Positions 10,974 through 58,602 of a stretch of DNA of 64,000 nt are shown piece by piece. This DNA is from an uncultured Acidobacteriota bacterium (GTDB lineage Bacteria; Acidobacteriota; Blastocatellia; RBC074): NCBI GenBank assembly GCA_902825875.1, contig CADECP010000038.1:1915-65914 (forward strand). Direction: 5' to 3'. The number at the start of each line of letters is the position of its first letter. The first letter of the stretch is position 1. Position numbers and translations under genes: made by a program. The notes under the pieces are model-generated. The model did no database searches, was not told the origin of the DNA, and saw only the letters and a program-made list of their open reading frames with translations.

Positions 10974-11501
10974 CTCAAGCCTCCTTCCTGGCATGACAAG
11001 TGAACAAAACGCGAATGGCCCACGAGCAAATTGGAAGACACACTGCGGGGCGAATCGGGGCGTTATCTGGGGCAAGGAAGCCGTACACGAGATTTGGGGC
11101 TAAAAGTCGCTGGCTTTATCGTCGCTTAGGGCGCGATTGGTATTTCAGTTGGTTTTCAAATCTTCTCGGATGCGTGTGTGTTGAATGTGCCAAATGGCTG
11201 AAGCAGCCTTCTCGGTGATAAGCCGATAGGTGCTTTTGTGCTTTGAGATGCTTTTCAAATTTTAGGGGGAAATGAATTAACCGCTTCGATTGACGGGCGG
11301 ATCATAAAAAGCCGCGACTCATCTGTCAACGAAGAGTCGGGAAAAGTCTTGGAGGGTGGGGAAAGTTTTTGGAAGCCGGACTTGCCCGGACTTCCCAAGA
11401 CTTATGACGGTTTGCATACACAAAACTTTGAATTACTATGCGGCCTCGCCTTGGAATTCCTTCCGCAAAAAAGATTGAACACAGTTTGGAGGTTTTCAGC
11501 A

Positions 11502-17112: not shown

Positions 17113-17235
17113 AAGCAAGATTTGGAGTGCTGCGACTCGGCGCAGCTTTGTGTTCGCGGTAGAAGGCTTGCTGGTATAGAAAACCTTCTACCGCGAACGA
17201 AAAGCGGTGGCAGGCCACGCGCACTCCAAATCACT
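17113..17235. repeat. REP-like intergenic repeat, family B, copy 2.
   Basis: A GCGCAGCTTTG head is followed by a GTTCGCGGTAGAAGG/CCTTCTACCGCGAAC 15-bp hairpin and then the GAACGAAAAGCGGTGGCAGGCCACGCGCACTCCAAATC tail shared with 1484-1515. Confidence 0.55.
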
Positions 17236-17258
17236 TCTGCAACCTTTGGGAGGGAACA

Positions 17259-20200: not shown

Positions 20201-20621
20201 GTTGGCCAATGAATACTCCGGTTCGGGTGGAGATTATCTGCCCTACCTGTTCCGCCGTTACGGCATAGGCCCGATTATCGGCAAACGCACGTGGGGCGGT
20301 CTGGTTGGAATCGGAGGTTATCCGACGTTGATGGACGGCGGCAGCGTGACGGCTCCGCACTTCGCGTTTTACACGCCTGAAGGGAAATGGGACATCGAAA
20401 ATCGAGGCGTCGCGCCCGACATCGAAATTGACCTCGACCCCAAAGCCTGGCGCGAAGGCCGCGACGTTCAGCTTGAACGCGCCGTCAATTACCTGCTGGA
20501 AGAACTGAAGAAAAATCCGCCGAAGGAATACAAACGTCCGCCGTATCCCGATTACCACAAAGCCAATCCGATTGCTCCGGCTTCGGGCGGGCAATCGGCG
20601 AAAAACGGCAGCCAGCAGTAA
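17259..20621 (+). CDS. Tricorn-protease homologue, paralogue 2.
   Basis: The 1120-aa protein is colinear with paralogue 1 at roughly 55-60% identity by eye. It has the same propeller/PDZ/S41 order and a Lys/Ala/Glu-rich linker insert. Confidence 0.75.
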   Translation: MRKAFLSLSLLLIAAAMLISDNRSSAQERPLLVRKPTMNRTHIVFQYAGDLWSVPRAGGEATRLTNGTGGEGNAVFSPDGQTVAFTGEYDGNTDVFTVPASGGVPKRVTAYPGVDALSNWTPDGKSLLFLSERSSESRRFMKLFTVPATGGLPAEVPLPTGHEGSFSPDGSKLAYEPLPRAFNAWKRYRGGHASYIWIAALSDSSTEKIPREDSNDFNPMWIGDKVYFLSDRDGAITLFAYDTKTKRVSKLINNTGLDIKSATAATTGDAIVYEQFGSLNIFDLKSNRSTKVNVTINADQLAVRPKYERVGQRINGAAISPTGARAVFEARGEILSVPAEKGDARNLTSTTNVAERDPSWSPDGKWIAYFSDASGEYELHLRDQKAAGEVKKIKLEPSFYYNPQWSPDSKKIALSDKRGNMWLVDVETAQPKKYDTTIFAGANGVSWSSDSRWLTYGKPLKSYYSAVYVYSLEDGKTVQITDGMSNAGSPVFDKSGKYIYFTASTDTGPKLSGFDMSSYAHRPTSSVYVAVLRKDLPSPLAPESDEEKVQNPDREGGADAAKPADKPEEKKADAAAAAKPAEKKEAPKVAIDFDNIGQRILALPIPNKNYVGLDAGKPGTLWIGEFPEGAQGATLHKFDLEKRKLDKVMDNIQTLTFSANGEKMLYRMGPGWFIAATAMAGTPAFKPGEGRLKTEDMEVFVDPKAEWQQMYRETWRIERDFFYAPNYHGLDLKATEKKYEPYVQALVHRSDLNYLFQEMLGELTVGHLYVNGGDIPDPKRIAGGLLGADYKIENGRYRFAKVFNGENWNPQLRAPLTQPGVNVVAGEYLLAVKGRDLTAADDIYALFESTAGKQVTLKVGPNPDGTGSRDVVVVPVASEGALRNLAWVEDNRRKVEKMSDGRLAYIYLPDTAGGGYTFFNRYFFSQLDKQGAVVDERYNSGGHAADYVVDYLKKPLNSFWAGRDGIDFRQPVATMPGPKAMLANEYSGSGGDYLPYLFRRYGIGPIIGKRTWGGLVGIGGYPTLMDGGSVTAPHFAFYTPEGKWDIENRGVAPDIEIDLDPKAWREGRDVQLERAVNYLLEELKKNPPKEYKRPPYPDYHKANPIAPASGGQSAKNGSQQ

Positions 20622-20689
20622 ACGAGTAACCGCGCGGGATAACGCAATCACGCCGATTGCGTTATCCTGCACGGCGAAAGGAGTTTGTT

Positions 20690-21115
20690 ATGAAAACTTA
20701 CGATGTGCTTGTTGAGCGACATAATGGAGGGTATCGCGCTATCGTGCCGACTCTGCCTAACTTGATTGCCGAAGGGGCGACTCCGGATGAAGCTGTCATC
20801 AACGTTAAGCAGACAATTGAGGAATTTTTCAAGTCTGTTGAGGTGAGAACAGTTACCGTTGATCTGTCATCCGGGAAATTCGCGCTTGCTGAAAAGTGGC
20901 TTCAGGAGGCCAGAAGGTCCCACCAGAATGCTGAAGGAGTACCAGGTTTGGACAAGCGAAGCCCGCGCATTTGGCTTGAGACTGCGGGAATGTTCGCGGG
21001 CGATGAAGAAGCGATGTGGCAGCACATTGAAGAAATAGAGGCTGAGCGTCGTCGGCAACGTGAGGAAGTTGAACGCGAGTACGATCTGCTTGAAGCCAAA
21101 GGAAAGGGCGAATGA
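20690..21115 (+). CDS. HicB-like/UPF0150-family antitoxin-like protein, probable partner of the downstream PIN toxin.
   Basis: The N-terminal YRAIVPTLPNLIAEGATPDEAVINVKQTIEEF matches the HicB/UPF0150 fold signature. An AAAGGAG ribosome-binding site is present. Its stop overlaps the vapC start by 4 nt. Confidence 0.45.
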   Translation: MKTYDVLVERHNGGYRAIVPTLPNLIAEGATPDEAVINVKQTIEEFFKSVEVRTVTVDLSSGKFALAEKWLQEARRSHQNAEGVPGLDKRSPRIWLETAGMFAGDEEAMWQHIEEIEAERRRQREEVEREYDLLEAKGKGE

Positions 21116-21537
21116 AGTTATACGTGTTGGATACAAGCGTCTGTGGTTTCGTACAAAATCGTTATCCGGCGACGATGCAACACGTCCAAAATGCTTTGGG
21201 ACAGGGCGATGCAGTTGTAACCACGATTGTCGCTTTTGGCGAAGATTTAGGAGGTTGGTTGCCCGCCTGTCGTAGAGCTAAAACCGGACTTGAAAGAGAG
21301 AAAGCCTATCTTCGATTGCAGACTGGATTGGAGTTTTACCTGACAAAAGACTGCCTTCCTTTTGACCGAACAGCCTCGCATATTCTCGATAACTTGGTGG
21401 CTCAAAAAATCCGTGTTGGCACAAACGACCTGGCAATTGCCGCCATCACGCTTTCGGTTAATGGCATTCTGGTGACGCGAAACACTGTGGATTTTGAACG
21501 TGTCCCAAACCTCGTCATCGAAGATTGGACAGTGTGA
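21112..21537 (+). CDS. vapC: PIN-domain ribonuclease toxin (VapC family).
   Basis: The LYVLDTSV N-terminal Asp is present, together with the conserved acidic residues (FGEDLGG, TNDLAIAAI, TRNTVDFERV). The protein is 141 aa. Confidence 0.75.
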   Translation: MKLYVLDTSVCGFVQNRYPATMQHVQNALGQGDAVVTTIVAFGEDLGGWLPACRRAKTGLEREKAYLRLQTGLEFYLTKDCLPFDRTASHILDNLVAQKIRVGTNDLAIAAITLSVNGILVTRNTVDFERVPNLVIEDWTV

Positions 21538-21555
21538 GGTTCGAGAAAAAGCTTT

Positions 21556-22020
21556 ATGAACCTTTCTGAGATTCGTTACTACTTTTCAAAAGATGATTTG
21601 CTCGCCTTGCTGAAACTCTTGGCTATTCCAGCCGGGCTGGTTTTCGTCATCTTTTTGCTGTGGGCGGGCAGTGAAGTAAAAGAGCGACTTGCTAATCCGA
21701 CGTTGCCAGGTCTTCGGCGGTTAGCTGAAAAAGAGTTGTTGCCGGGCACGGATAAGGCTGCGGTTATTTCTTTCCTTGATCGTAATCAGATTGGGCATGG
21801 CACGTATGAGCCAGTTACCGAAAATGAGAGGCAGTTATCGATGGAATTTGACGACTATAAGATCAAAGAAAATTTGAGCCGTATTCGCTACAGAATTAAT
21901 GGCGGAAGAGATGTCTCCAATTGGCGTTGGGTTTTGGGCTGCTGGATGACGATCTGGGTTTATTTCGATGAAGAAGGGAAGCTGATTGATTATCAACTGC
22001 ACGGGTTTTGTGATGGTTGA
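21556..22020 (+). CDS. Hypothetical membrane protein.
   Basis: It has a single N-terminal transmembrane helix (LLKLLAIPAGLVFVIFLLWAG) and no recognisable motifs. Confidence 0.4.
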   Translation: MNLSEIRYYFSKDDLLALLKLLAIPAGLVFVIFLLWAGSEVKERLANPTLPGLRRLAEKELLPGTDKAAVISFLDRNQIGHGTYEPVTENERQLSMEFDDYKIKENLSRIRYRINGGRDVSNWRWVLGCWMTIWVYFDEEGKLIDYQLHGFCDG

Positions 22021-22056
22021 AGCAGACTGTGCGGTTTCTGAAAAGGAAAATACACG

Positions 22057-25000
22057 ATGACAAAAATAACTTTGGTAACCACGTTTCTAGTCGCTCTTGC
22101 AGGCATTGGCCTAGCTCAGGAATCACCGCTGTTGTTGCAGCGTCCGACTTTGAGCAAGACGCACATCGCTTTTAACTTCGCCGGTGATTTGTGGATCGTC
22201 GAACGCGGTGGTGGCGAAGCGAAACAATTGACCACCGGAGTCGGCGTCGAAATCGAGCCGATCTTTTCGCCGGATGGTTCGCAAATCGCCTTCACCGGAC
22301 AGTACGACGGCAACACGGATGTGTTTGTCGTCGCGGCGACCGGCGGAGTTCCGAAGCGGCTGACGTTTCACCCCGGCGGCGATCAAGCTGTTGGCTGGAC
22401 TCCTGACGGCAAGCGCGTGTTGTTCAGTTCAGCGCGCAGCAGCTTTTCGCCTACGCCGCGGTTGTTCACGATTGGAACCGATGGAGCCGGATTGCCGGAA
22501 GAAATTCCTTTGCCGATGGCGGAGCGTGGTTCGTATTCGCCCGACGGAGCTTCTCTGGCTTATGAGCCGCTGGTTCAATGGCAGCCCGAATGGAAGCATT
22601 ACAAAGGCGGCCAGCAGGATGTGATCTGGATTGCCAGGCTTAGCGATTCGACGATTGAAAAGCTGCCGCGCGCCAATTCCAACGACAAAAGCCCGATGTG
22701 GCCCTCTTTTGGAAACGCCGACAAGGTTTACTTCCTGTCTGATCGGAACGGCGCAGTGACGCTGTTTTCGTTCGACACCAAAAACAAAAAGATTGCTCAG
22801 GTCGTCAACAACAACGGACTCGACATCAAATCGGCTTCGGCCAGTTCGGATGCGATTGTTTACGAACAGTTCGGCGCGATTTATGTGCTCGACCTGAAAA
22901 CCAACCAGTCGCAGAAAGTGAACATTCGCGTCAACGCTGATCTGGCTTCGGTGCGTCCGCGCTTTGAGCGAGTCGGCCAACGCATCAGCGGCGCGGCGAT
23001 TTCTCCGGCAGGCGCGCGAGCGGTCTTTGAAGCGCGTGGCGAAATCCTGAGCGTTCCGGCGGCCAAGGGCGATGCGCGCAATTTGACCGGGACTCCGGGC
23101 GTGATGGAACGTGATCCGGCGTGGTCTCCAGACGGAAAATGGATCGCTTATTTCAGCGACGAATCCGGCGAATACGCTTTGCACCTGCGGAATCAAACCG
23201 GCGTCGGCGAAGTCAAAAAGATCAGCCTGGGCAATCCCTCGTCGTTTTTTTATTCGCCTGTCTGGTCGCCCGACAGCAAGAAAATCGCTTTCACCGACAA
23301 ACGGTTGATCCTTTGGTACGTGGACATTGAAAAGGGAACGCCGGTCAAAGTAGACACCAACACTTATGAAAATCCCTGGCGCGTGATGGATCCAAACTGG
23401 TCGCCGGATAACAAGTGGATCACTTACACCAAGCAGTTGAAGAACCGTATGTGCGCGGTCTTCGTGCATTCGCTGGAAACCGGCAAGTCCACGCAAATCA
23501 CCGACGGATTGAGCGACGCGCGTTTTGCGAACTTCGACAAAAACGGCAAATACCTTTACTTCACTGCCAGCACTGACGCCGGGCCGACAACTGGCTGGCT
23601 GGATATGTCCAGCTTCCCGCACCAGACGACGCGAAGCGTTTATGTCGTGGTGCTGAAGAAAGGCGAAGCTTCGCCGCTGGCTCCTGAAAGCGACGAAGAA
23701 AAGATTGCCGAAGAAAAGAAAGACGAAGCGCCTAAAGCTCCTCCGCAAAAGAAAGAAGTCGTCGTCACGATTGATTTTGAAGACATCGGCCAGCGCATTC
23801 TGGCTTTGCCGATTCCTGCCAAAAACTACATCGGGGCGGGTGTGGCAAAGTCTGGCCTGTTGTTCCTGATGGAAGGCGCGGGTGGTGGTTTGTTGGGCGG
23901 CGGCCCGGCAACGCTTCACAAATTCGACCTGGAAAAACGCAAGTTCGACAAGGTGATGGACGGCATTACGGCTTTCGACATTTCTGCCAACGGCGAAAAA
24001 GCTCTTTACCGACAAGGGCCAAGCTGGGTGATTGGCAACGTCGCCAGCTTGGGAGCGCCAATGCCTCCGGGAGCGCCGGGCGGGCCGAACATGTTGAAAG
24101 TCGGCGAAATGGAAGTTTCGATTGATCCCAAAGCCGAGTGGCGGCAAATGTACGAAGAAGCCTGGCGCATTCAACGCGACTTCCTGTACGACCCAAACCT
24201 GCACGGATTGGATTACGCCGCGACCAAGAAAAAGTACGAGCCGTATTTGAACGCCGTCGGCCACCGCGCCGATTTGAATTACCTGTTCGATGAAATGCTG
24301 AACAACATCGGCGTCGGCCATCACTTTGTTCGAGGCGGAGAAATTCCGCGCCCGAATTTTGTGCCGGGCGGGTTGCTCGGAGCCGATTACAAAATCGAAA
24401 ACGGGCGCTATCGCTTCGCGCACGTTTACAGCGGAGAAAACTGGAATCCGGGATTGCGCTCTCCGCTGACGCAACCCGGCGTTGAAGTCAAAGCTGGTGA
24501 ATATCTGCTGGCCGTCAAAGGCCGTAATCTGACGGCGACCGACAACATCTACCAATTCTTTGAAGCGACGGCAGGCAAACAGGTGACGATCAAAGTTGGC
24601 CCGAATCCCGACGGTTCTGGTTCGCGCGAAGTCGTCGTGGTTCCCATCGGCAGCGAAGGCGGGCTTCGCAACCGCGAATGGATGGAAGGCAATCGCCGCA
24701 AAGTGGATCAACTGAGCGGCGGCAAACTGGCATACATTTATCTGCCAGACACTGGCGGAGGCGGTTACACCAACTTCAATCGCTACTACTTTTCGCAAGT
24801 GGACAAAGAAGGCGCGGTGCTGGATGAACGCTACAACGGCGGCGGCACGGCGGCGAATTACATCATTGATATGATGCGACGTCCGTTGATGAACAAATGG
24901 GTGACGCGCGAAGGCGAAGATTTTGCGACGCCTGCGACTTCGATCTTTGGGCCGAAGGTCATGGTTATCAACGAATTCGCCGGTTCGGGCGGAGACATGA

Positions 25001-25410
25001 TGCCGTGGCTGTTCCGCAAAGCTGGCGTCGGCAAAACCGTCGGCAAACGCACTTGGGGCGGTTTGGTAGGCATTTACGATTACCCGTCGCTGATGGATGG
25101 CGGCAGCGTGACGGCTCCGCGCGTAGCGTTTTACAACCTGCAAGGCGAATGGGACGTGGAAAATTACGGAACTCCGGCGGATGTCGAAATCGAACTCGAT
25201 CCGGCGGAATGGCGCAAAGGCCGCGATTCGCAACTGGAAAAAGCCGTCGAAGTCGCAATGGCCGAACTGAAAGCCAAGCCTTTGCCGACGCACAAACGAC
25301 CGGCTGCGTTCCCGAATTACAACAGTCCTGCTTCGCCTGTTTCGGGCAGCAAGACAAAACCGAGCAGTACGACCGGCAAACCTGCCGTGAAAACCGGCGG
25401 ACAGCGGTAA
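22057..25410 (+). CDS. Tricorn-protease homologue, paralogue 3.
   Basis: The 1117-aa protein has the same architecture as the two upstream paralogues. Confidence 0.75.
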   Translation: MTKITLVTTFLVALAGIGLAQESPLLLQRPTLSKTHIAFNFAGDLWIVERGGGEAKQLTTGVGVEIEPIFSPDGSQIAFTGQYDGNTDVFVVAATGGVPKRLTFHPGGDQAVGWTPDGKRVLFSSARSSFSPTPRLFTIGTDGAGLPEEIPLPMAERGSYSPDGASLAYEPLVQWQPEWKHYKGGQQDVIWIARLSDSTIEKLPRANSNDKSPMWPSFGNADKVYFLSDRNGAVTLFSFDTKNKKIAQVVNNNGLDIKSASASSDAIVYEQFGAIYVLDLKTNQSQKVNIRVNADLASVRPRFERVGQRISGAAISPAGARAVFEARGEILSVPAAKGDARNLTGTPGVMERDPAWSPDGKWIAYFSDESGEYALHLRNQTGVGEVKKISLGNPSSFFYSPVWSPDSKKIAFTDKRLILWYVDIEKGTPVKVDTNTYENPWRVMDPNWSPDNKWITYTKQLKNRMCAVFVHSLETGKSTQITDGLSDARFANFDKNGKYLYFTASTDAGPTTGWLDMSSFPHQTTRSVYVVVLKKGEASPLAPESDEEKIAEEKKDEAPKAPPQKKEVVVTIDFEDIGQRILALPIPAKNYIGAGVAKSGLLFLMEGAGGGLLGGGPATLHKFDLEKRKFDKVMDGITAFDISANGEKALYRQGPSWVIGNVASLGAPMPPGAPGGPNMLKVGEMEVSIDPKAEWRQMYEEAWRIQRDFLYDPNLHGLDYAATKKKYEPYLNAVGHRADLNYLFDEMLNNIGVGHHFVRGGEIPRPNFVPGGLLGADYKIENGRYRFAHVYSGENWNPGLRSPLTQPGVEVKAGEYLLAVKGRNLTATDNIYQFFEATAGKQVTIKVGPNPDGSGSREVVVVPIGSEGGLRNREWMEGNRRKVDQLSGGKLAYIYLPDTGGGGYTNFNRYYFSQVDKEGAVLDERYNGGGTAANYIIDMMRRPLMNKWVTREGEDFATPATSIFGPKVMVINEFAGSGGDMMPWLFRKAGVGKTVGKRTWGGLVGIYDYPSLMDGGSVTAPRVAFYNLQGEWDVENYGTPADVEIELDPAEWRKGRDSQLEKAVEVAMAELKAKPLPTHKRPAAFPNYNSPASPVSGSKTKPSSTTGKPAVKTGGQR

Positions 25411-43461: not shown

Positions 43462-44101
43462 GTTCGTCAGGTTTCAGAACCTCTGCCTACCTACGAAAGT
43501 GACACACTAGAACTCGGCTCTGATTATTAAACTCATCGCGGGTCACGGATGCGGCCAAAAACAGCGACAGCAATCTCAAAAAATTGCATTGGCTGTGTCC
43601 GATACGGTTCAAAAAGCAAAGTTTCATAAAGCGATATGTGCTTGCGAGATGCCCCTCTGGAAGGTGAGCCTGGTGCCAGCGGGGTGGTTGGGTCGGGTCA
43701 TCTCTCTAGCGGAATGCCGTGCGTGTCAAAGCCCTCGCAGAAATCAGCTTTGCGCGCGATCACTGGGACGGCTTCCGAAAAATCCAAAATCGCAATTTGT
43801 TCAATCCTCCAATCGGCAATCGGCTGAAAGCAGCCGCGTGCGTTTCCGTTTAAGCAGGGTTTGCTGTGTGGGCGGCGAACCCTGCGTTTTTCACGGTTGG
43901 CGCTGACTGCACGGCGGACAAGATGTTGCCGAGAAATTCCTGATGACAAGCCAGCTAAAGGCTTGCTCGGGACAAGTGTTGCCTTTCGCCGGGTAAAGCA
44001 TTGCATCAACGGCTGACTGGCAATGGTTTTTCAAAAATGAAAATGACTTGATGGCTGTTTTTCGACAGACGCCATTGACACGAAATAACAGGAGTTTCGG
44101 T

Positions 44102-47100
44102 ATGCATTCCCCTAACACTACACACACGACGGATTCTTTTACCAAACGGCTGAAAGAAAGAGCCAAATTTATCAAACGCAGAATTTCGACTTCGAGCAAG
44201 CGTCGCCGATTGGCGGTTTCAGCAATTGCGATGGCGATGGTGCTGACTGCCTCAATGATGCTGGCAGGGTATTACAGCCGACCGGCCAATGCCGCTCCAC
44301 TGACAGCCAGCACTTTTTTCACCGAATCCTATGCCGGGATGACGCAAGGCATGAAGTATTTGATGGGCAAGCTGTTTGGTACTGCGATTCCCAGCCCGGC
44401 TTATGCCTGCACGCTGACTCAGCAAATCACGGTCAGCGGTTGTTATTTCACGACTGGATCGAAAGCGACGGTCAGCGTCGAAGTCAGTTGGGTCGGTAAC
44501 ACCAGCGCGGACACGATCACAGTTTCGCTTGATGGTGGCGCGCAAACGCGAACCATCAATCCTGAAGATTTGTTTGATCCGGGATCGGGTTCTGCTGTGG
44601 CCGGGCCGATTAAATCGCCGCAAGTCGTGGCCTTTGAAATTGACGCCGATGGAGCTTCGCACAGCATTACCAGTACGGCTTCCGGAGCGAACAGTTGTAC
44701 GACGGGAGCGAGCAATTTCATTGCTCCGGCGGGATGCGCGCCGAACCTGTGCGGTTCTGGCGAATTGGGCGGAACGGTGTTTTTCGATTATGACGCCGAC
44801 GGTATCAAAGACTCCGGCGAAACGAACGGTGCTTCGGGCGTGACAGTCACCGCTTTTGACGTGAACGGAACGACGTACACCGCCACCAGCGATTCATCTG
44901 GTCGTTATGAATTTAGCGCAGCCAACGGCAACTCGATTCCCGGTGGCGCTTATCCGGTTCGACTGGAATTCACCAACCTGCCCGCCATAAGTTTGAACAC
45001 CACAACTCCGCACGGAACGAACAACGCCAGCAGTGTGCAATTCGCCAGCGCGGCGGCCTGTACTTACGACGTTGGCGTAATGGATCAGACAGGTTTCTGT
45101 CAGAGCACCCCGTATGTGATTTTGCCTTGTTATGCGAACGGCGACCCTGCGCCGAACGTTGATGCAAACGATGCCGGCGACCTTGATGCGTTGATTGCGT
45201 TTCCTTACACCGCGTCAGGCGGGCCAACCCCCGGAATAATGATTCATCTTGCCACAGCCCGTCAGGTAGGTTCGCTCTGGGGCACAGCGTATAACAAATT
45301 CACGAAACGGATGTTTAGCTCAGCCATGCTTCGTCGCCACGTGGGACTAGGGCCATTAGGACTAGGCGGAATCTACGTCACCAATATGACGATTCCGACA
45401 TCGGCCACGACTGGCAACTTTATTGACGTGACGGCTTTGGGGATTGATCTTGGGCAGGCGTCAGTACCGAACGTGGCCACACGCGGTTTGTCCAGGATCA
45501 AAACTGATCCGAGTTATGACACTACTGTATTCGGCTTGGTCGGAAAGGTCGGTATCGGAGATTTGGACATTTCAGAAGACGGCAACACGCTATGGTTCGT
45601 TAATCTCTTCGACAAGAGGCTTTATTCGGTAGACATCACGGCATACAACGGCGATGGTACGACACTGCCAACGGCGGCCAATGTCAGTTCGACGGCTATT
45701 CCAAGCCCTGGCTGCGCTAACGGAGAGCACCGTCCTTGGGGAACCAAATTTTACAAAGGACAGGTTTATGTAGGATCAGTCTGCGATGGCAGCACTGGCA
45801 CAACTTCCGATATGCGGGCGCGGATTTCGGTTTTCAATCCTTCCGGGTCTACCTGGAGCACTGCATTTGAATTTCCTCTGACATATCCGAAAGGCTATCC
45901 CTTTAACAACGTACCGGCGCTTACAGGCTGGTATAGATGGACGGATAGTTTTGCCGAATTTTCGACGGGCCAGGGAACTTTCAGCGGTCTTCCGTTGGTG
46001 GTAAGACCCCAGCCGATTTTGTCGGACATTGAGTTTGATATTGATGGGTCAATGGTGATTGGACTTGGCGATAGAGGCGGCATGCAAATGGGCTATGTCA
46101 ATTACGGCCCGAACCCGCCGAGCACAAGCCTTTATGTCACATCAGTCGGTGGCGACGTATTGAGAGCCTTCAATTCAAACGGAACTTTTGTTTTGGAAAA
46201 CAACGCCAAAGCAGGGGCAAACACTGGTTTCGGCCCCAACAACTTCCAGGGGCCTGGGTTTGGCGAATTTTACGATGACAACTGGACTATCGGTGCTCTT
46301 AAGCCTCATACCGAGCAATCCATCGGTGCATTGGCAATCAAGCCTGGTTCAGGGGAAGTCGTAAGTGTGGTGGTTGATCCGGTGAACAACACCCCCAATT
46401 CGGGCGGTGTCAGATGGCTTGATAATTCAGATGGGACGACGTCCCGATCTTACGCTGTCTATTCCAACAGCAACAATTCAGCGGACGGCTTGTTCGGCAA
46501 AGCCGCTGGTTTGGGTGACGTGGAACTGAACTGCGACCCGGTTAGTTATCTGGAAATCGGTAATCGCATCTGGATGGACGGCGACGCCGACGGAATTCAG
46601 GACCCAGGCGAAATGCCGATTTCGGGAGTGACACTGCGGCTTTACACTCCAAACGGCAGAGACGGAGTTGCCGGTAACGGCGACGACTTGCAACCGATTG
46701 CCACAGCGGTTACGGACAGCACCGGAGCTTATTACTTCACTTCGGTTGATGCCAACAACGACGGCATACCTGACAACGATACGGTTACGACGAACAACAC
46801 AGGCCTGGTCGGCGGCGGAACTGCCAATCCGACCTATCCGGCAATTCAACCGAACACACGTTACGTGATTCGCGCCGATCTGGCGTCCGATTATTCTGGC
46901 GGAGCTTTGGCGGGTAAAAATGTGACCCAAGCCAACATCGGCGCTGGCGTGTTGGGCAGCCCTGCCGATTTGCGCGACTCCGACGCTACGTCGGCAAACG
47001 TGCTTGGCATCGCTGGCGGCAACTTCCCTGAAATTGAAGTCAAACATTTGGTCAGCAATGTTGAAACAAATGGCACAGGTGCTTTCGGTGAAGACGATCA

Positions 47101-50100
47101 CACGATGGACATGGGCTTTGTGGCGCTGAGTTGTACAGTCGCCGGAGCCACTACCGTCTGCAATGGTTCGACGAATACTTACAGCGTGATGACCAATCCA
47201 GACCCGTTGACCAACCCGACTTATAGCTGGTCAGTGGTGAATGGTGGCGGCGCGAACGCTTCGATCAGTGGCGCGAACAATGGCGCGACGGTGATGGTCA
47301 ATTCCGGCACGAATGCCGGAACTTACACGGTGATGGTGACAATCAACAGTACGGAAGGTTCGACTTCGTGCAGCCTGACCGTAACCATTAACAACGTTAC
47401 GGCAGGAGTTGTCGCTACGGATCAAACTGTCTGTTCTGGCGGAGACCCTGCGGCCTTTACCGTGCCGACGGCGGCGACCGGTTCGGGAACTCTGACTTAC
47501 CAATGGCAGAGCAGCACGACGGATTGCACCACCGGGTTCACAAACATTACCGGAGCGATGAGTGCAACTTATGATCCGCCGTCAGGTTTGACTCAGACAA
47601 CCTATTACCGGCGAATCGTAACTTCCACGTTGAATAGTGTTGCTTGCACCGCGACCAGCAATTGCGTGACGGTGTCGGTCAACAACGTCACGCCCGGCGT
47701 AGTCGCTGGCGATCAAGCGGTTTGCGCACCGGGCGACCCTGTGGCCTTCACCGTGCCGACGGCAGCCACCGGTTCTGGAACTCTGACCTACCAATGGCAG
47801 AGCAGCACTGTGGATTGCACGACCGGATTTACCAACATTCCCGGAGCGATGAGTGCAACTTATGATCCGCCGTCAGGTTTAACTCAGACGACGTACTACC
47901 GCCGCATTGCTACTTCGACGTTGAACAGCGTTGCCTGTTCATCGCCGCCAAGCAATTGCATCACGGTGACGTTCAATCCTGGCCCGACAGCCAATGCCGG
48001 AATGGATCAGGAATTGTGTCTGGCGGTTTCAGGCACAACGGCTTTCAACCTGAATGGCACTGGAACCAACGGAAACCCATCGTGGGCGGTTTTCGCTACG
48101 ACCGGAACGGCTGCGGCATCCATCGTCAATGGTTCAACGCTGACTCCGACAATCAATGTCACGGGCGTTGGCACGGTGACGATGCGATTGACGATGACCA
48201 GCAACCAGACTCCGAGTTGCGGCACTGCGACCGATGATGTTGTGCTGACCGTTACGGCCATGAATCTTGGCAACCAGGTCTGGAAAGATTTGGACAACGA
48301 TGGCATACGCGATACTTCGCCAGCGGAACCGGTCATTGACGGCGTGTTGATGAATCTGTACCGCGAATCCAACGGAACGCCCGGCCTGCAAATTCCCGGC
48401 GACACTTTGGTTACTTCGCAAACCACTGCCGGAGGCGGGCTGTACAACTTCACCGGCCTGCCTTGCGCGGATTACTACGTCCAAGCGGCTGCGTCCAACT
48501 TTGCTGCAAGCGGAGCGCTTTTCGGCTGCGCCAGCAGCACGGGCAACGTGACTGGTAACAGCGATCTAAACGACCAGGATCACGGCGTTGACGATACCAA
48601 CCCGGCAACCAATGGAATTGCCAGTTCGGTAATCACTTTGTCGCTGCACGGTGAGCCGCCGGCAGGAACTGACGGCGACGGCAACGACGGCAATCTGACG
48701 GCAGATTTCGGGTTTGCGCCGTTGATGAATCTCGGCAATCTGGTTTGGAAAGACCTGGATGCCGACGGAATTCGTGACACGGTCAGCCCGAATGAACCCG
48801 GAGTTGACGGCGTCAAAGTCGTCCTGTGGCGCGATACCGGCGACGGCTCGTTCAATTCCGCAACCGACGCGATGGTTGCGATGCAAAACACCAGCGGCGG
48901 CGGAGCTTATAACTTCACCGGTCTGGCTCCGGGCAATTACTTCGTGCAAATTGATTCGACGAACTTCGGAGCGGGTGTTTTGAGCACTTGCCTGAGTTCG
49001 CCAAATCACGACACAGGTGATTCAACCGACAACAACGACAACGGCGTTGATAACCCGACGCCGACTACGGGTGGAGTCGTCAGCGTGTTGATTCCGTTGA
49101 TTGGCAGCAGCGAACCGACGGATGACGGCGACGGCAACAACGGAAACCTGACTGTGGACTTCGGTTTCTATGCACCGATGAATCTCGGCAATCTGGTTTG
49201 GAAAGACCTGGATGCCGACGGCGTGCGCGACACGGTCAGCCCGAATGAACCTGGCGTTGACGGCGTCAAAGTCGTTCTGTGGCGCGACAACGGCGACGGT
49301 TCGTTCAATTCAGCAACCGACACGATGGTGGCGATGCAGAACACCAGCGGCGGCGGAGCTTATAACTTCACAGACCTGTTGCCGGGCAATTACTTTGTTC
49401 AGGTTGATTCGACGAACTTCGGCGCTGGTGTGCTCAGCACTTGTTTGAGCAGTCCTGGCAACGATTCCGGCGACGCGACTGACAACAACGACAACGGCGT
49501 TGACAACCCGACGCCGACTACGGGCGGAGTGGTCAGCGTCTTGATTCCGTTGATCAGCCAAAGCGAGCCGACGGATGACGGCGACGGCAACAACGGCAAC
49601 CTGACGGTGGATTTCGGGTTCTACGCGCCATTGAATCTCGGCAATTTGGTTTGGAAAGACCTGGATGCCGATGGAATTCGTGACACGGCCAGTCCGAATG
49701 AACCCGGAGTTGACGGCGTCAAAGTCGTGCTCTGGCGCGACAATGGCGACGGCTCGTTCAATCCGGCGTCCGACACGATGGTTGCAATGCAAAACACCAG
49801 CGGCGGCGGAGCTTACAACTTCACAGGGTTGTTGCCGGGCAATTACTTCGTGCAGATTGACCAGTCGAACTTCGGCGCTGGCGTGTTGAGCGTTTGCCTG
49901 AGTTCGCCGGGTAATGATTCCGGCGATGCGACTGACAACAACGACAACGGTGTTGATAACCCGACGCCGACAACCGGCGGCGTGGTCAGCGTGCTGATTC
50001 CGTTGATCGGTCAAAGCGAACCGACCAACGACGGCGATGGCAACAACGGAAACCTGACAGTGGACTTCGGGTTCTACCCGCCGATGAATCTCGGCAATCT

Positions 50101-53100
50101 GGTCTGGAAAGACCTCGATGGCGACGGAATCCGCGACACGGTCAGCCCGAATGAGCCGGGAGTTGACGGCGTCAAAGTCGTGCTCTGGCTCGACAACGGC
50201 GACGGCTCGTTCAATTCTGCCACCGACACGATGTTGACGATGCAAAACACCAGCGGCGGCGGAGCTTACAACTTCACGAATCTGCTGCCGGGCAATTACT
50301 TCGTGCAGGTTGACGAATCGAACTTCGGCGCTGGTGTCTTGAGCACTTGCTTGAGTTCGCCCAATCACGACACGGGTGATTCAACCGACAACAACGACAA
50401 CGGTGTTGATAACCCAACGCCGACAACCGGAGGCGTGGTCAGCGTACTGATTCCGTTGGTTGGAACTACAGAACCGACGAATGACGGCGACGGTGACAAC
50501 GGCAACCTGACTGTAGACTTCGGGTTCTACCCGCCGATGAATCTCGGCAACCTGGTCTGGAAAGACCTGGATGCCGATGGTGTCCGCGACACGGCCAGCC
50601 CGAATGAACCCGGCGTTGACGGCGTCAAAGTCGTGCTTTGGCGCGACACCGGCGACGGCTCGTTCAATTCCGCGAACGACACGATGGTGACGATGCAAAA
50701 CACCAGCGGCGGCGGAGCTTATAACTTCACGAATCTGTTGCCGGGTACGTACTTCGTGCAGATTGACCAGTCGAACTTCGGCGCTGGTGTGCTCAGCACT
50801 TGTTTGAGCAGTCCCGGAGCCGATACCGGCGACACCGATAACAATGACAACGGCGTGGACAACCCGACGCCAACAACCGGCGGAGTCGTCAGCACTCCGG
50901 TTGTTTTGATCGGCCAGAGCGAGCCAACCGATGACGGCGACGGCAACAACGGCAACCTGACTGTGGACTTCGGTTTCTACCCGCCGATGAATCTGGGCAA
51001 TCTGGTTTGGAAAGACCTGGATGCCGACGGAATCCGCGACACGGTCAGCCCGAATGAACCCGGAGTTGACGGCGTCAAAGTCGTGCTCTGGCGCGACACC
51101 GGCGACGGCTCGTTTAGCTCGACAACCGACACGATGGTGGCAATGCAGAACACCAGCGGCGGCGGAGCTTACAACTTCCAAGACCTGCTGCCGGGCAATT
51201 ACTTCGTGCAGGTTGACCAGTCGAACTTCGGCGCGGGCGTGTTGAGCGTCTGTCTGAGTTCGCCGGGCAACGACAACGCAGACACCACCGACAACAACGA
51301 CAACGGTGTTGATAACCCGACGCCGACTGTCGGCGGAGTTGTCAGCGTCTTGATTCCGTTGATCGGTCAAAGCGAGCCGACGGATGACGGTGACGGCAAC
51401 AACGGCAACCTGACGGCTGACTTTGGGTTTTACCCGCCGATGAACCTTGGCAATCTGGTTTGGAAAGACCTGGATGCCGACGGAATCCGCGATACGGTCA
51501 GCCCGAATGAACCCGGAGTTGACGGCGTCAAGGTCGTGCTCTGGCGCGACACCGGCGACGGCGTGTTCAACTCTGCAACCGACACGATGGTGGCGATGCA
51601 GAACACCAGCGGCGGCGGAAGCTACAACTTCCAAGACCTGTTGCCGGGCAATTACTTCGTGCAGATTGATTCGACGAACTTCGGCGCGGGAGTGCTCAGC
51701 ACTTGCTTGAGTTCGCCGGGCAACGACAACGCAGACACCACCGACAACAACGACAACGGCGTTGATAACCCGACGCCGACAGTCGGCGGAGTTGTGAGCG
51801 TGCTGATTCCGTTGGTTGGTCAAAGCGAGCCGACGGATGACACCGATGGCAACAACGGCAACCTGACGGCTGATTTTGGGTTCTACCCGCCGATGAATCT
51901 CGGCAATCTGGTTTGGAAAGACCTGGATGCCGACGGCGTCCGCGATACGGTCAGCCCGAATGAGCCCGGAGTTGACGGCGTCAAAGTCGTGCTTTGGCGC
52001 GACAACGGCGACGGTTCGTTTAACTCAGCCACCGACACTATGGTGGCAATGCAAAACACCAGCGGCGGCGGAAGCTACAACTTCCAAGACCTGTTGCCGG
52101 GCAATTACTTCGTGCAGATTGACGAATCGAACTTCGGAGCGGGTGTGTTGAGTACGTGCCTGAGTTCGCCAAATCACGACACAGGTGATGCGACTGACAA
52201 CAACGACAACGGAGTTGATAATCCGACGCCGACTGTTGGCGGAGTCGTCAGCGTGCTGATTTCCTTGATTGGTCAAAGCGAACCGACCAACGACGGCGAC
52301 GGCAACAACGGCAACCTGACTGTGGACTTCGGGTTCTATCCGCCGATGAATCTCGGCAACCTGGTCTGGAAAGACCTGGATGCCGACGGCGTCCGCGACA
52401 CGGTCAGCCCGAACGAACCCGGCGTTGACGGCGTCAAAGTCGTGCTCTGGCGCGACAACGGCGACGGTTCGTTTAACTCAGCCACCGACACTATGGTGGC
52501 AATGCAAAACACCAGCGGCGGCGGAAGCTACAACTTCCAAGACCTGTTGCCGGGCAATTACTTCGTGCAGATTGACGAATCGAACTTCGGAGCGGGTGTG
52601 TTGAGTACGTGCCTGAGTTCGCCAAATCACGACACAGGTGATGCGACTGACAACAACGACAACGGAGTTGATAATCCGACGCCGACTGTTGGCGGAGTCG
52701 TCAGCGTGCTGATTTCCTTGATTGGTCAAAGCGAACCGACCAACGACGGCGACGGCAACAACGGAAACCTGACTGTAGACTTTGGTTTCTATCCGCCGAT
52801 GAATCTGGGCAACCTGATCTGGAAAGACCTCAATGGCAACGGTCTGCGTGACGGCAATCCTCTGGAAGCTGGCATTGACGGCGTCAAAGTCGTGCTCTGG
52901 CTCGACAACGGCGACAATACCTTCTCGGCATCCGACACGATGGTGGCAATGCAAAACACCAGCGGCGGCGGAACTTACAGCTTCGCCAATCTGCTGCCGG
53001 GCACGTACTTTGTGGAAGTTCCGCAGAGCAACTTCGGGCCGGGTCAAGTTCTAGGTGATTGTTTGAGCAGTCCTGGTGCTGACACTGGTGACACTGACAA

Positions 53101-54538
53101 CGACGACAACGGTGTGGATAACACCACTCCGACCATTGGCGGAATTGTCAGTACGCCGATTGTCTTGATCGGTCAGAGCGAACCGACCAATGACGGCGAC
53201 GGCAACAACGGCAACCTGACGATTGACTTCGGCTTTGCGCCAGCGCCTGACTGGGCGTTTGGTAACAATCCGAACGGCATTCCGGGCAAAGCCTACGAAG
53301 GCGATCCTTGCAATGGCGCGACGGGCACTTACGTGCTGACGATGACCAATCTGGGGCCGACGGCTGCGAATCCGGGAGCCGTGATGACCGATGTTATTCC
53401 GACGGGAATCACGCCGATTGCGGCCAGCGGAGTGGGTTGGAGTTGTACGATCAGCGGGCAAACAGTGACCTGCACCAGCACGACTCCGTTGGCGTTGAAT
53501 GCGATGACACAGATTCGCATCACGGTCGGCATCGGCTACAACATCAGCGGCCCGGTGACGAACACGGCGAGCATTGCTTATCCGGGTGATCCGGGAACCA
53601 ACAACAACACGGCCAGCACAACGATCAACGTGGTGAATGGCATTGGCGCTCCGGGGCTTCCGTTTGAAAACAACGGCAGTTCGGTGCTGGTTTACCCGAT
53701 CTACACGTCGAACTCCTCAAACCCGAACGAGCAGAATACGCGCATCAACCTGACGAACATTCACAACCAGAAATCAATCTGTGTGCATTTGTTCTTCGTG
53801 GATGGTTCGAGTTGCTCCATCGCGGACAGCATTGTATGTCTGACACCAAATCAGACGACCAGCTTCCTGGCTTCAGACCTTGATCCGGGAACGACGGGCT
53901 ATCTGGTTGCAGTGGCGATTGATTGCACGGGCTGTCCGACAAACTTCAACTTCCTGGTCGGCGACGAATACGTCAAATTCAGCAGCGGTCACAGAGGCAA
54001 CATCGTTGCCGAAGGTGTCGCGGCTCTGCCTGCCCTGTCGGCGTGCAACAGCGCATCAACGACGGCGGCGCTGAACTTTGACGGAGTGAGTTACGGACGC
54101 TTCGGTCGAACGCTGGCTGCGGATAACTTCGGCAGTCGCGCGGATGGCAACGACACAATGATTGTGGTGAATCGCATCGGCGGCAATCTGGCAACCGGAG
54201 CGGCATCGCTGGGAACATTGTTCGGAGTGCTGTACGACGACGCAGAACAGGCTCTGAGCTTCAGCGTAACAGGCACCTGCCAGTTGCGTAGCAGCTTGAC
54301 GAACAACTTCCCGCGCACGACGCCGCGCTTTGAAACCTTCATTCCGGCGGGACGCACGGGCTGGCTGAAACTGTTCTCGCAGAGCGACATCGCTCTGGTG
54401 GGAGCCATGATTAACTACAACGCAAATGCCGCCAGTTCGGCAGGAGCTTTCAACGGGGCGCACAACCTGCACAAACTGACCTTGAGCAGTGCGGGTTCGT
54501 TCATCGTCCCAATCTTTCCTCCTCAGGGTTGCCAGTAG
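44102..54538 (+). CDS. Giant secreted repeat protein (about 3478 aa). Domains in order: signal peptide, N-terminal region, two Ig-like repeats, eleven SdrD-B/Cna-B-like repeats, a DUF11 domain and an unknown C-terminal domain.
   Basis: An AGGAG ribosome-binding site precedes MHSPNTT. The long signal peptide has the form n-region, [25 protein letters not shown]|AP. Two [13 protein letters not shown]...TYYRRI repeats are followed by eleven 151-aa units ([15 protein letters not shown]...[12 protein letters not shown]), a DUF11-like segment and a roughly 280-aa C-terminus. The track ORF starts at 44048. Confidence 0.8.
48261..53250 (+). repeat. Eleven tandem copies of a 453-bp coding repeat (450 bp in one copy).
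   Basis: Unit starts are at 48261, 48725, 49178, 49631, 50084, 50537, 50987, 51440, 51892, 52346 and 52799. The internal copies are about 90% identical at the DNA level. Confidence 0.85.
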
Positions 54539-56652: not shown

Positions 56653-56680
56653 AAATTGTTGAATGAAGTGGCAGCGGGTA

Positions 56681-57562
56681 TCAATTCTTGTTCGCCAGTT
56701 CGGTCAGTCGTTTGCGAAACGCCTCGATTTCCGTAATTCGATCCAGATCGAAGTACAGTTGCTTTAAGGAGGACAAGTCGTGAATTTGTTCAATCTCAGT
56801 TTTGAAATTCAGGCTGGGAAAATGCTTGGCTACTTGATCGCAGATCATTTCGACAATGATGTCCCGTCCTTCTTCTTTGCCTTCGTCGAGTATGAATTGG
56901 TAGTACGGTGTTTCCCTCAAAACTTCGTGCATAAACATGGTAGTTCTCCTTAACAATTCAAGTACGTCTTGGCGATTGTAGCGTAGCGAGCCGAGCATCA
57001 AAAAATGTAATGCCAACTCCTGTCTACGTATCTCGTCAGTCAGTTGTCCCAAAGCCAGGGCACTTTGTTCAAGCTCAGTCTCTCCGCCTTTCATCAACGG
57101 AATGAAAGGGAGCAAGGATTCCTCCTTCCAAGAAAGCGCATCGGCAGCCGATATTTCCCATAATTTGAGAATGCTGAACCGAGCCGTCAGCGTCAGCCCA
57201 CCAGCGGCCAAAGTCATTGTCGTTGGAATGTTTGGCGGGCAACCGTCGGGCGAAAAGATCAGTACAAAGCTGTGAACTGGTAAGTGATAGTTGATCCACA
57301 ACAGCGCATCATATTCAACCACACGTTCCGGCACATTAGTTCTGTAGAACGTCTGAGCTTCAACGTGAGCGATGAATTTTTCGTTGCCGGTGTCTACTTC
57401 GTAAGGTTGATCGGCCAACAAAGCCGGAGCAGACATTTCGCGCGGCAAAGGTTTGATTTTGGCATTGAGCGGAAGCGCGCCAACCAAACGAAGCAGGGTT
57501 TCAGCGGCTTCTTCAGCCAAATCTTTGAACGCTGTGTCGTATGGTTTGTGATCCTGACTCAC
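56681..57562 (-). CDS. Rpn-family (YhgA-like) PD-(D/E)XK recombination-promoting nuclease/putative transposase homologue.
   Basis: PYDTAFKDLAEEAAETLLRLVGALP aligns with the RpnA N-terminus (PHDALFKLFLREPETARDFLLAWLP), and IAHVEAQT aligns with LLVEHQS. The protein is 293 aa. Its start overlaps the lpxD stop by 4 nt. Confidence 0.55.
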   Translation of the reverse strand: MSQDHKPYDTAFKDLAEEAAETLLRLVGALPLNAKIKPLPREMSAPALLADQPYEVDTGNEKFIAHVEAQTFYRTNVPERVVEYDALLWINYHLPVHSFVLIFSPDGCPPNIPTTMTLAAGGLTLTARFSILKLWEISAADALSWKEESLLPFIPLMKGGETELEQSALALGQLTDEIRRQELALHFLMLGSLRYNRQDVLELLRRTTMFMHEVLRETPYYQFILDEGKEEGRDIIVEMICDQVAKHFPSLNFKTEIEQIHDLSSLKQLYFDLDRITEIEAFRKRLTELANKN

Positions 57563-58602
57563 TGCTCCTCACCTGTGCCTTTTGTTGCTGAGTCCTTTTC
57601 CAGTTTTTTGAGTCGGTCGAAGAGTTCGGGCAATCGCGTGTACAGCACGTGCGATTTGCGCCATTGTTGATAATCCATTGCGGCCATCATGCCGCCCATC
57701 AGTTTGCCAGCTTCGACGGATTTCGTCACGCCGGTGCGTGCCGTGATAATCGCTCCATCGCCGATGGTGATGTGTTGATTGGTTCCGATTTGCCCGGCCA
57801 GAATACAACGCCTGCCGATTTTGGTTCCGCCGGAAAATCCCGCCAGAGCCGCAACAACAGTGTCTTCGCCAATTTCAACGTTGTGGCCGATTTGAATCAG
57901 GTTGTCGAACTTGGCTCCGCGATGAATGCGCGTTTCGCCGAAGCCCGCGCGGTCAACGCAACAGTTTGCGCCGATTTCGACATCGTCTTCGATGATGACG
58001 CGACCAACTTGCAGCAGTTTGAATTGGCGACCTTGTTCATCGGGCGTGAAGCTGAATCCATCCGAACCGATGACCGTTCCGCTGTGAATGCGACAACGCG
58101 CGCCGATGTTCGTGTCGTCATAAACCGAAACGTTCGGGAAGAGAATCGAATCGTCGCCGACGCGACAATTGTCGCCGACGACTACGCCGGGGTGCAGCGT
58201 AACCCGGTCGCCGATTACGGAGTTGCGGCCAACAGTGGCTCGCGGATAAATGGAGCAGTCAACGCCGATGTGCGAAGCTTCGCCGAGAACAAAGTCTGAA
58301 CTGACGCCGCGCGATTCGTAAGCTTTGGCGTGAAACGCATTGATTGTTCGCGCAAATGCCAGTTTGGCGTCACGAGCAATCAGCAGATCTTTTTCCGCGA
58401 GTTGAGGGTTGTCGGCCAGCTTGGCGGGAACGATGAACGCTGTGGCTGGCGAAGCTAACGCTTCGGGCAAACGCGCCGCGTCAGCGACAAAGGTGATTTC
58501 ACCGGATTGAACTGCATCAAGCGAATTGACGCCGGAAAGTTCGGCGTCGGCGTTTCCGCGAAGTTCTGTCTGAATGAATTGAGCGAGTTCGGCAAGGGTC
58601 AT
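57559..58602 (-). CDS. lpxD: UDP-3-O-acylglucosamine N-acyltransferase.
   Basis: It begins MTLAELAQFIQTELRGNAD and has hexapeptide beta-helix repeats. It sits in the skp-lpxD-fabZ-lpxA context. Confidence 0.85.
   Translation of the reverse strand: MTLAELAQFIQTELRGNADAELSGVNSLDAVQSGEITFVADAARLPEALASPATAFIVPAKLADNPQLAEKDLLIARDAKLAFARTINAFHAKAYESRGVSSDFVLGEASHIGVDCSIYPRATVGRNSVIGDRVTLHPGVVVGDNCRVGDDSILFPNVSVYDDTNIGARCRIHSGTVIGSDGFSFTPDEQGRQFKLLQVGRVIIEDDVEIGANCCVDRAGFGETRIHRGAKFDNLIQIGHNVEIGEDTVVAALAGFSGGTKIGRRCILAGQIGTNQHITIGDGAIITARTGVTKSVEAGKLMGGMMAAMDYQQWRKSHVLYTRLPELFDRLKKLEKDSATKGTGEEQ

Follow-up and report, generated by a model that had tools for sequence, protein, structure and literature searches.

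The window analysed here, a stretch of 64,000 nucleotides from an uncultured, soil-type Acidobacteriota bacterium (GTDB lineage Blastocatellia, RBC074; GenBank assembly GCA_902825875.1, contig CADECP010000038.1, positions 1,915 to 65,914), contains a giant gene whose product of 3478 amino acids (aa) is probably a Sec-exported fibrillar adhesin of the stalk-and-head kind, with a stalk that Ca2+ would stiffen and a base, made of a DUF11 domain and a C-terminal domain that we call BCT, that would mediate retention at the cell surface. A first-pass annotation, made from the DNA letters alone, had proposed a secreted adhesin-like architecture, and the protein does have the build of an exported, stalk-type protein with SdrD_B units. 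Giant repeat adhesins are common and as an adhesin this one is ordinary; the noteworthy part is the terminal BCT domain, which is confidently folded in structure prediction, presumably disulfide-bonded, has no coverage in Pfam, NCBIfam or PDB, and ends the proteins of at least 1301 clusters. It is a testable anchor candidate in a lineage whose surface display has been little studied, and a domain model of it would give hundreds of "hypothetical" proteins an annotation. The predicted beta-propeller of the head belongs to a second family that has no Pfam or NCBIfam model; the protein is best filed as a fibrillar-adhesin type with an SdrD_B stalk, in which these two unmodelled modules are new.

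The last 285 aa, for which Pfam and NCBIfam have no match, had been called an unknown domain of about 280 aa, which is correct as far as those databases go, but the domain is no orphan. A word-indexed search with these residues retrieved 1390 proteins, the best 120 of which are 57–81% identical to the query over the whole domain in proteins that are otherwise unrelated, and an exhaustive profile search collected representatives of at least 1301 clusters (50% identity), of which 731 have E <= 1e-30. Against the PDB, neither the sequence nor its profile gave any match at E <= 10. Host proteins vary in length from 344 to 5807 aa, and of the 382 near-full-length domains in the 475 proteins fetched, 363 end no more than five residues from the C-terminus (the other 19 being mostly extra copies in multi-copy proteins); in the giant protein the match to the profile extends to aa 3475 of 3478. 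The passengers found in 50 representatives are HYR, He_PIG, P_proprotein, DUF7933, DUF11, Big_3_5 and FG-GAP domains, together with Calx-beta, NHL, LamG, dockerin, PKD, TIG and CARDB; some matches carry HYR or DUF11 ahead of BCT, and DUF11 is paired with BCT in many other family members too. A signal-peptide-like N-terminus, with a methionine followed by a hydrophobic segment, is present in 113 of 149 BCT representatives, and among the others most seem to be truncated gene calls.

Among the best 120 matches most are unnamed, and every name that is given is Blastocatellia or Acidobacteria. At least 568 BCT loci were found in a scan of one genome per species, the best 80 of them all in metagenome-assembled genomes (MAGs) of Acidobacteriota/Blastocatellia type with several loci per genome, and in a close relative of the window genome there are four or more additional BCT genes. 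As far as sequence searches can tell, BCT is a large, lineage-restricted family, all source-named members of which come from Acidobacteriota/Blastocatellia MAGs. Several BCT-rich GTDB MAGs (loci L008, L009, L011, L014, L025, L067, L079 and others) are titled "uncultured Heliomicrobium sp.", "Heliobacteriaceae" or, once, "Gammaproteobacteria bacterium"; wrong labels or faulty binning are the probable cause, as every other carrier with a name is Acidobacteriota/Blastocatellia.

AlphaFold2 predicts BCT as an all-beta domain of about 22 strands (predicted local distance difference test, pLDDT, 91; predicted template modelling score, pTM, 0.89). A Foldseek search with the model against PDB and BFVD returned generic double-sandwich and jelly-roll proteins (query TM-score, TMq, 0.2–0.3) and a 117-aa sandwich (1nc7) that matches one half of the domain, with no full-length structural match. 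All six cysteines of the family are present in 300 domains, the window BCT included; 40 domains have lost C85 and C122 jointly, C45, C53, C200 and C284 are missing together from internal copies, and the tightest couplings are C53-C284 and C45-C200. These losses suggest that BCT has three disulfides, one of which would pin the C-terminal cysteine. Because the six cysteines co-vary as three pairs, an extracytoplasmic, oxidising location is indicated, and the pinning of the C-terminal cysteine argues against a free C-terminal attachment residue. H104, H261, H264, D49, D68, D187, E189 and several arginines are invariant, and the giant protein fits the family pattern of motifs (NTR-x-x-x-TN, CLTPNQT, GDEYVKF, FPRT-PRF and GHNLH). 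The two halves (aa 1–140 and 141–285) show at equivalent positions a faint common series of motifs, G-TGY/W ... G-x-(I)NFN ... GH, a hint of an ancient internal duplication, which was not adopted since hhalign of the halves gave only 2% probability.

The stalk consists of eleven tandem units (U1–U11) of the SdrD_B/Cna-B type, as had been annotated, starting at aa 1387, 1542, 1693, 1844, 1995, 2146, 2296, 2447, 2598, 2749 and 2900. Their period had been described as a strictly conserved 453 bp, which is true of most units and not of all: the lengths are 155, 151 (four times), 150, 151 (four times) and 148 aa, that is, 465, 453 (four), 450, 453 (four) and 444 bp, and Tandem Repeats Finder reports an array at 48670-53232 with period 453, 10.1 copies and 85% matches. 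The Pfam SdrD_B family (PF17210) scores 521.1 bits against a cutoff of 29.7 (E = 2e-159) over 13 stretches, namely the eleven tandem units and one copy on either side of the head. Every unit opens with GN-x-VWKD-L-D-x-D-G-x-R-D. A single unit had no match in the PDB by phmmer, and a profile of the units was needed, which matches the B1/B2 domains of SdrD (E 9e-16); in that alignment the loop stretch of the units overlies GNYVWEDTNKNGVQD, the first Ca2+ loop of SdrD, in agreement with the DxDxDG-type loops expected in the first-pass annotation. The giant protein has 14 D-x-[DN]-x-[DN]-G-x-x-D loops, one opening each of the 13 SdrD_B domains, and the units therefore plausibly bind Ca2+. In B domains, three Ca2+ are bound and the mechanical stability is extremely high (PMC6232131). 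Behind the stalk, the DUF11-like domain that had been noted was also found (46.5 bits against a cutoff of 24.6, E = 5e-12).

In front of the stalk, an N-terminal region of about 1000 aa does exist, as annotated, but it is not one region, being made up of the signal peptide, a Cys-containing part, an SdrD_B domain, a predicted beta-propeller of 490 aa and another SdrD_B domain. The head (aa 325–815) has no match in Pfam or NCBIfam. Its 99 homologues, 28–54% identical, come from Bacteroidota, Chloroflexota, Cyanobacteria and Planctomycetota, and almost all of these proteins contain SdrD_B as well. The AlphaFold2 model, built on an alignment of 32 sequences (pLDDT 91.9, pTM 0.93), resembles many beta-propellers (Foldseek prob 1.0, TMq 0.3–0.4), and a profile search of the PDB gave a weak match to the YVTN-propeller 1l0q; with these predictions, we assign the head to the beta-propellers with confidence. 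Between head and stalk lie the two Ig-like TYQWQSS repeats of the earlier description, each of 97 aa (47444-47976; period 291 bp, 1.8 copies, 84% matches in Tandem Repeats Finder), in a region where family scores are weak (PKD_4, E 0.004; ZirU_fam, 2e-5, below cutoff). The number of these repeats varies, being four in the related protein P0291 against two here. Coordinates of all features are collected in Table 1.

Table 1. Features of the giant gene and its immediate surroundings, in window positions.
Feature	Position	Strand	Basis
Terminator-like hairpin, 14 pairs and T-run	43854..43885	+	hairpin scan, sequence
Shine-Dalgarno AGGAG	44090..44094	+	sequence
Complete coding sequence, 3478 aa	44102..54538	+	open reading frame listing, sequence
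Extended Sec-type signal peptide, aa 1-64	44102..44293	+	hydropathy, sequence
Small Cys-containing region, aa 65-221	44294..44764	+	no significant Pfam/NCBIfam match
SdrD_B-like domain before head, DYDADGIKD loop at aa 229	44765..45067	+	Pfam, motif
Head, predicted beta-propeller, aa 325-815	45074..46546	+	homologues, AlphaFold2, Foldseek
SdrD_B domain after head, DGDADGIQD at aa 826	46547..47128	+	Pfam (E 5e-12), motif
PKD/Ig-like region, aa 1010-1386	47129..48259	+	Tandem Repeats Finder, motifs, weak family matches
Stalk, eleven tandem SdrD_B units U1-U11, 48% of protein	48260..53242	+	Tandem Repeats Finder, Pfam, motifs
Units U9 and U10, with a 317-bp exact repeat in common	51893..52798	+	97.6% nucleotide, 100% aa identity
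DUF11 (PF01345) beta-sandwich, aa 3069-3175, directly before BCT	53306..53626	+	Pfam
C-terminal BCT domain, 285 aa, ending ...PIFPPQGCQ	53681..54535	+	homologue searches, AlphaFold2

The history of the array differs from what near-identical repeats would commonly be taken to mean. A DNA identity of about 90% between copies had been given; identity reaches 97.6% between U9 and U10 only, while the nine core units U2–U10 have a mean pairwise identity of 85.1% (range 81.6–90.9%, U9/U10 apart), and U1 and U11 are only about 59% and 75% identical to them. The core units are more alike as proteins (84–93%) than as DNA, with mean dN (nonsynonymous divergence) 0.072, mean dS (synonymous divergence) 0.614 and dN/dS 0.12. 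Since synonymous sites have diverged while the protein has been conserved, the units are old duplicates kept alike by purifying selection on an array of fixed length, and not recently expanded or homogenised ones, which corrects the common inference made in the first-pass annotation.

Comparison with two relatives points the same way. The nearest public DNA, contig JANRKX010000048.1 ("MAG: Acidobacteriota bacterium bins.235"; locus L001), is about 95% identical to the window and collinear with it, and is therefore an orthologous locus from an independent assembly and not the window itself. Its orthologue has eleven units with a length pattern identical to that of the window, and the window units are 91–96% identical to the unit at the matching position (80–88% to the others), except for U9, which is closer to the tenth unit of the orthologue (95.6%) than to the ninth (90.7%), the latter two being 90.1% identical to each other. 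It follows that a recent conversion copied U10 over U9 in the window lineage, or that the assembler was misled; the long exact repeat makes a local assembly collapse possible, and otherwise U9/U10 looks like the sole recent conversion in the array. The second relative, P0291 (3421 aa), is about 84% identical in stalk and base and has eleven units too; its end units pair with U1 (90.8%) and U11 (81.8%), and its core units have no one-to-one pairing. As the count is nevertheless eleven, the sequences indicate slow concerted evolution at constant unit number, and the high potential for copy-number variation that had been proposed is not borne out by this comparison of repeat numbers. The head of P0291 is 38.6% identical to that of the window protein, against 83.5% for the base, which is better conserved than any part before it; the head has been swapped, or has diverged fast, upon a conserved chassis of stalk and putative anchor; in P0294, the DUF11+BCT subtype of the window protein stands behind an unrelated N-terminal part.

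We propose the following course of events for the protein. The 64-aa signal peptide would carry it across the inner membrane; the propeller, set between two SdrD_B domains, would be the distal, N-terminal candidate binding head, followed by the PKD/Ig-like spacers and by the rod of eleven putatively Ca2+-binding SdrD_B domains. By analogy with the Sdr/Cna adhesins of Gram-positive bacteria and with fibrillar adhesins (PMC8286594, PMC6232131), the Ca2+-loaded rod would be stiff and force-resistant and would keep the head away from the cell, and the constant number of eleven units suggests selection on this reach. The DUF11 sandwich and BCT would form the cell-proximal base, a role that we read from their position and distribution. 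BCT may retain the protein at the cell, through an interaction with a component of the envelope or through co-assembly with stand-alone BCT proteins, in place of the LPXTG motif of SdrD and of the C-terminal domain (CTD) of the type IX secretion system (T9SS) in those Bacteroidota proteins that share the head; in one attractive version, the stand-alone BCT proteins would make up a surface layer, or attach to one, and the fusion proteins would dock into it.

A broader proposal, which we put forward tentatively as a possibility still short of a probability, is that BCT is a previously undescribed anchoring or co-assembly domain that tethers hundreds of exoproteins per clade, the giant adhesin included, so far in uncultured Acidobacteriota/Blastocatellia. 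The tether would then be an envelope polymer or a lattice of abundant stand-alone BCT proteins, and BCT would be a functional counterpart of LPXTG, of the S-layer homology (SLH) module or of the T9SS CTD, and might also mark a route of sorting across the outer membrane that has gone unrecognised. As the family is lineage-restricted and terminal, it is a concrete candidate for the anchoring route, and since BCT also occurs alone and occasionally at the N-terminus, it should be a folded module for binding or assembly, in the way of SLH domains, rather than a short signal for sorting. Several observations weigh against surface retention by BCT, and against an adhesive head. With 285 aa the domain is far larger than classical sorting signals, no known homologue ties it to anchoring, and its two beta-sandwich or jelly-roll-like halves have no informative structural neighbour. 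Motif scans and hydropathy found no membrane-spanning, lipidation or covalent-attachment motif in the giant protein. BCT is present two or three times in some proteins, a few copies are N-terminal or internal, and stand-alone proteins of about 331 aa consist of a textbook signal peptide and BCT, some of them encoded in tandem triplets. Clustering of the open reading frames of 80 loci gave no conserved partner or secretion gene beside BCT genes. As to the head, propellers can be enzymes too.

In that clustering the recurrent neighbours turned out to be antisense shadow frames or unrelated housekeeping and surface genes (ABC-F, Ser/Thr kinase, TonB-like barrels, TPR), and the neighbourhoods of stand-alone copies had no recurrent partner gene either. 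At locus L082 (7506-11008; also L083), three consecutive genes encode proteins of 334–337 aa without a Pfam match, the third of which is P0059, a stand-alone BCT protein, and the first two of which are similar to it in size; the position of the trio beside an Mpo1-like gene and an ABC-F ATPase is conserved, and these neighbours also flank the single-copy locus L081. On contig JANRKX010000048.1 (as locus L016), about 16 kb downstream of the giant-gene orthologue and beyond where the window ends, two more genes end in BCT, one encoding 950 aa and the other, divergent at 29% identity, 480 aa, and so BCT genes are loosely clustered in that genome.

The protein may instead be released as a scaffold of the extracellular matrix or biofilm, with BCT as a lectin-like or self-associating cross-linker and stand-alone BCT proteins as soluble matrix parts, which we regard as rather unlikely, though far from negligible. 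It would explain the tandem arrays of secreted stand-alone BCT proteins, the proteins with two or three copies (N-terminal ones included) and the want of a membrane or covalent anchor motif in the giant protein, and the weak Foldseek neighbours of BCT include the glycan-binding sandwiches SGBP-B and CBM51. The extreme C-terminal bias (363/382) and a layout with the head distal and the base proximal mirror anchored adhesins, however, and matrix binding is compatible with surface retention, as the bound polymer may itself be attached to the cell; the released scaffold fits most of the data and differs from a surface-held adhesin mainly in where that polymer is. It seems improbable that BCT is an enzymatic or effector domain acting through its conserved His, Asp and Glu, in which case the stalk would present a surface-displayed enzyme and not an adhesin. 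Such a role would suit the very high conservation of residues, with invariant His, Asp, Glu and Arg, and the occurrence of the domain as a secreted 30-kDa protein on its own; yet Pfam, NCBIfam and PDB sequence searches revealed no similarity to catalytic families, the fold matches no enzyme beyond generic sandwiches, the passengers are binding or stalk modules and not regulatory ones, and internal copies persist despite the loss of four cysteines.

Very improbable, in our view, is that the size and repeat count are artefacts of a short-read metagenome contig, through a collapsed or expanded array, or that the gene is a pseudogene. The exact repeat shared by U9 and U10 is longer than typical short-read k-mers, so the number of units of this type could be locally wrong, and the exact giant protein is absent from the gene-position collection. 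An independent assembly is nevertheless collinear through the array with the same eleven units and lengths, P0291 has eleven as well, all pairs of units other than U9/U10 differ about every 7 bases, and purifying selection has acted on a frame that stays open over 10.4 kb.

Among known systems, the window protein is most readily compared with staphylococcal Sdr/MSCRAMM (SdrD; PDB 4JDZ, 10PS) and Cna-type adhesins, with which it has in common tandem SdrD_B (Cna-B-like) stalk domains and the layout of N-terminal head, stalk and C-terminal base, and, with SdrD, the Ca2+ loop GN-x-VW-x-D-x-[DN]-x-[DN]-G-x-x-D. It differs in its diderm host, its predicted beta-propeller head, its DUF11 and BCT base, and its units of 151 aa instead of about 110 aa, and it lacks LPXTG, an SD-dipeptide region and the N2N3 DEv-IgG ligand domain. 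For the N2N3 A domain, PDB profile matches cover the SdrD B domains only, and the NCBIfam model NF012181 (MSCRAMM_SdrD) reaches 19.8 bits against a cutoff of 2500. Membership of the MSCRAMM Sdr family (SdrC/D/E) was therefore rejected, as there is no LPXTG with hydrophobic tail, no (SD)n run and no N2N3.

Bacteroidota SdrD_B proteins such as P0151 (Nibrella) and P0164 (Dyadobacter) have a homologous head, 33–54% identical and flanked by SdrD_B; these are surface proteins of about 800 aa that depend on an N-terminal signal and have few stalk units. They end (P0151, P0164, P0171) in the T9SS CTD Por_Secre_tail (PF18962), whereas the window protein ends in DUF11 and BCT. The earlier statement that no LPXTG, T9SS or autotransporter C-terminus is recognisable was upheld by motif, Pfam and NCBIfam searches. 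The protein is not T9SS cargo: PF18962 is absent, and the sole TIGR04183 match is partial (positions 32–62 of 72), internal (aa 2195–2225, in unit 6) and exactly at the cutoff. A type V or inverse autotransporter was discarded, as Pfam and NCBIfam give no terminal outer-membrane beta-barrel and the model of the terminal domain shows soluble sandwiches, with three putative disulfides. A type I-secreted repeats-in-toxin (RTX) adhesin of the LapA/SiiE kind is contradicted by the Sec-type N-terminus and by zero GGxGxDxUx nonapeptides; the upstream ATP-binding cassette (ABC) protein is best matched by MsbA (449 bits), not HlyB, and sits behind a terminator, and no HlyD-type membrane-fusion partner was found among the open reading frames scanned around the giant gene.

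The fibrillar adhesins described by Monzon and Bateman (PMC8286594, PMC9210967) have a tandem-repeat stalk and a terminal non-repeat head, as found here. About half of the known or predicted fibrillar-adhesin-like proteins have no recognised anchor (PMC8286594), and in the window protein too no known anchor is detectable; its head is not among the catalogued adhesive domains. In the main text of that paper "Acidobacteria" and "DUF11" do not occur, and BCT is not mentioned there. The SLH modules offer a functional analogy only: they too are folded, conserved modules common to many otherwise unrelated exoproteins of one lineage, mostly at one terminus and occasionally at the other, without a linked dedicated gene. 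BCT is unlike them in being a double beta-sandwich of 285 aa with putative disulfides, and has no relation to them in sequence or fold. In the literature we found no paper that deals with SdrD in connection with Blastocatellia or with a C-terminal sorting domain of acidobacteria, no description of the propeller head family or of BCT, and nothing on surface-protein display in the Blastocatellia-type lineage.

The gene itself is one unbroken, intact frame of 3478 codons and a stop codon (54536-54538), as had been annotated; the preferred start is the ATG at 44102, with the Shine-Dalgarno sequence 7 nt upstream as read from the sequence. The protein is acidic (D+E 352, K+R 119) and rich in Gly, Thr, Asn and Asp. 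The long signal peptide noted earlier is of Sec type, with a K/R-rich n-region of about 36 aa, a hydrophobic stretch at aa 37–55 (Kyte-Doolittle 2.1) and then SRPANA|AP, where the putative cleavage site follows from the A-x-A rule. By hydropathy, aa 37–55 is the sole strongly hydrophobic segment of the protein, and a scan for a second one, for LPXTG, for the RTX nonapeptide and for an SD-dipeptide run found none of these.

Upstream of the giant gene lie genes for an MsbA-like ABC exporter and glycosyltransferases, closed by the strong terminator-like hairpin 216 nt before the ATG, so that the giant gene is probably transcribed as a unit of its own. The opposite strand downstream carries lpxA, lpxD, two skp-like genes and bamA. 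To judge by these flanking genes (lpxA, lpxD, bamA, skp and msbA-like), the host is diderm. Within the lpx cluster, between an open reading frame of the size of fabZ and lpxD, a segment of about 944 bp (56653-57597) carries an open reading frame of 293 aa (56681-57562, minus strand) that has no Pfam or NCBIfam match; since about 97 bp take its place in L001, it is a strain-specific insertion. The N-terminus of this frame (..YDTAFKDL..) presumably resembles that of the Rpn/PD-(D/E)XK "putative transposase" proteins.

Elsewhere in the window, three tandem paralogues of Tricorn-like proteases (13705-25410; 1135, 1120 and 1117 aa) each have a PD40 propeller and Tricorn_C1, PDZ_Tricorn and Peptidase_S41 domains, and an additional S41/PDZ protease is encoded at 11349-13151. 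Other large envelope or surface genes encode a protein of 797 aa with TPR, FG-GAP and UnbV_ASPIC domains (4190-6583) and an outer-membrane barrel of 1199 aa with CarboxypepD_reg and OMP_b-brl_4 domains (6655-10254, minus strand).

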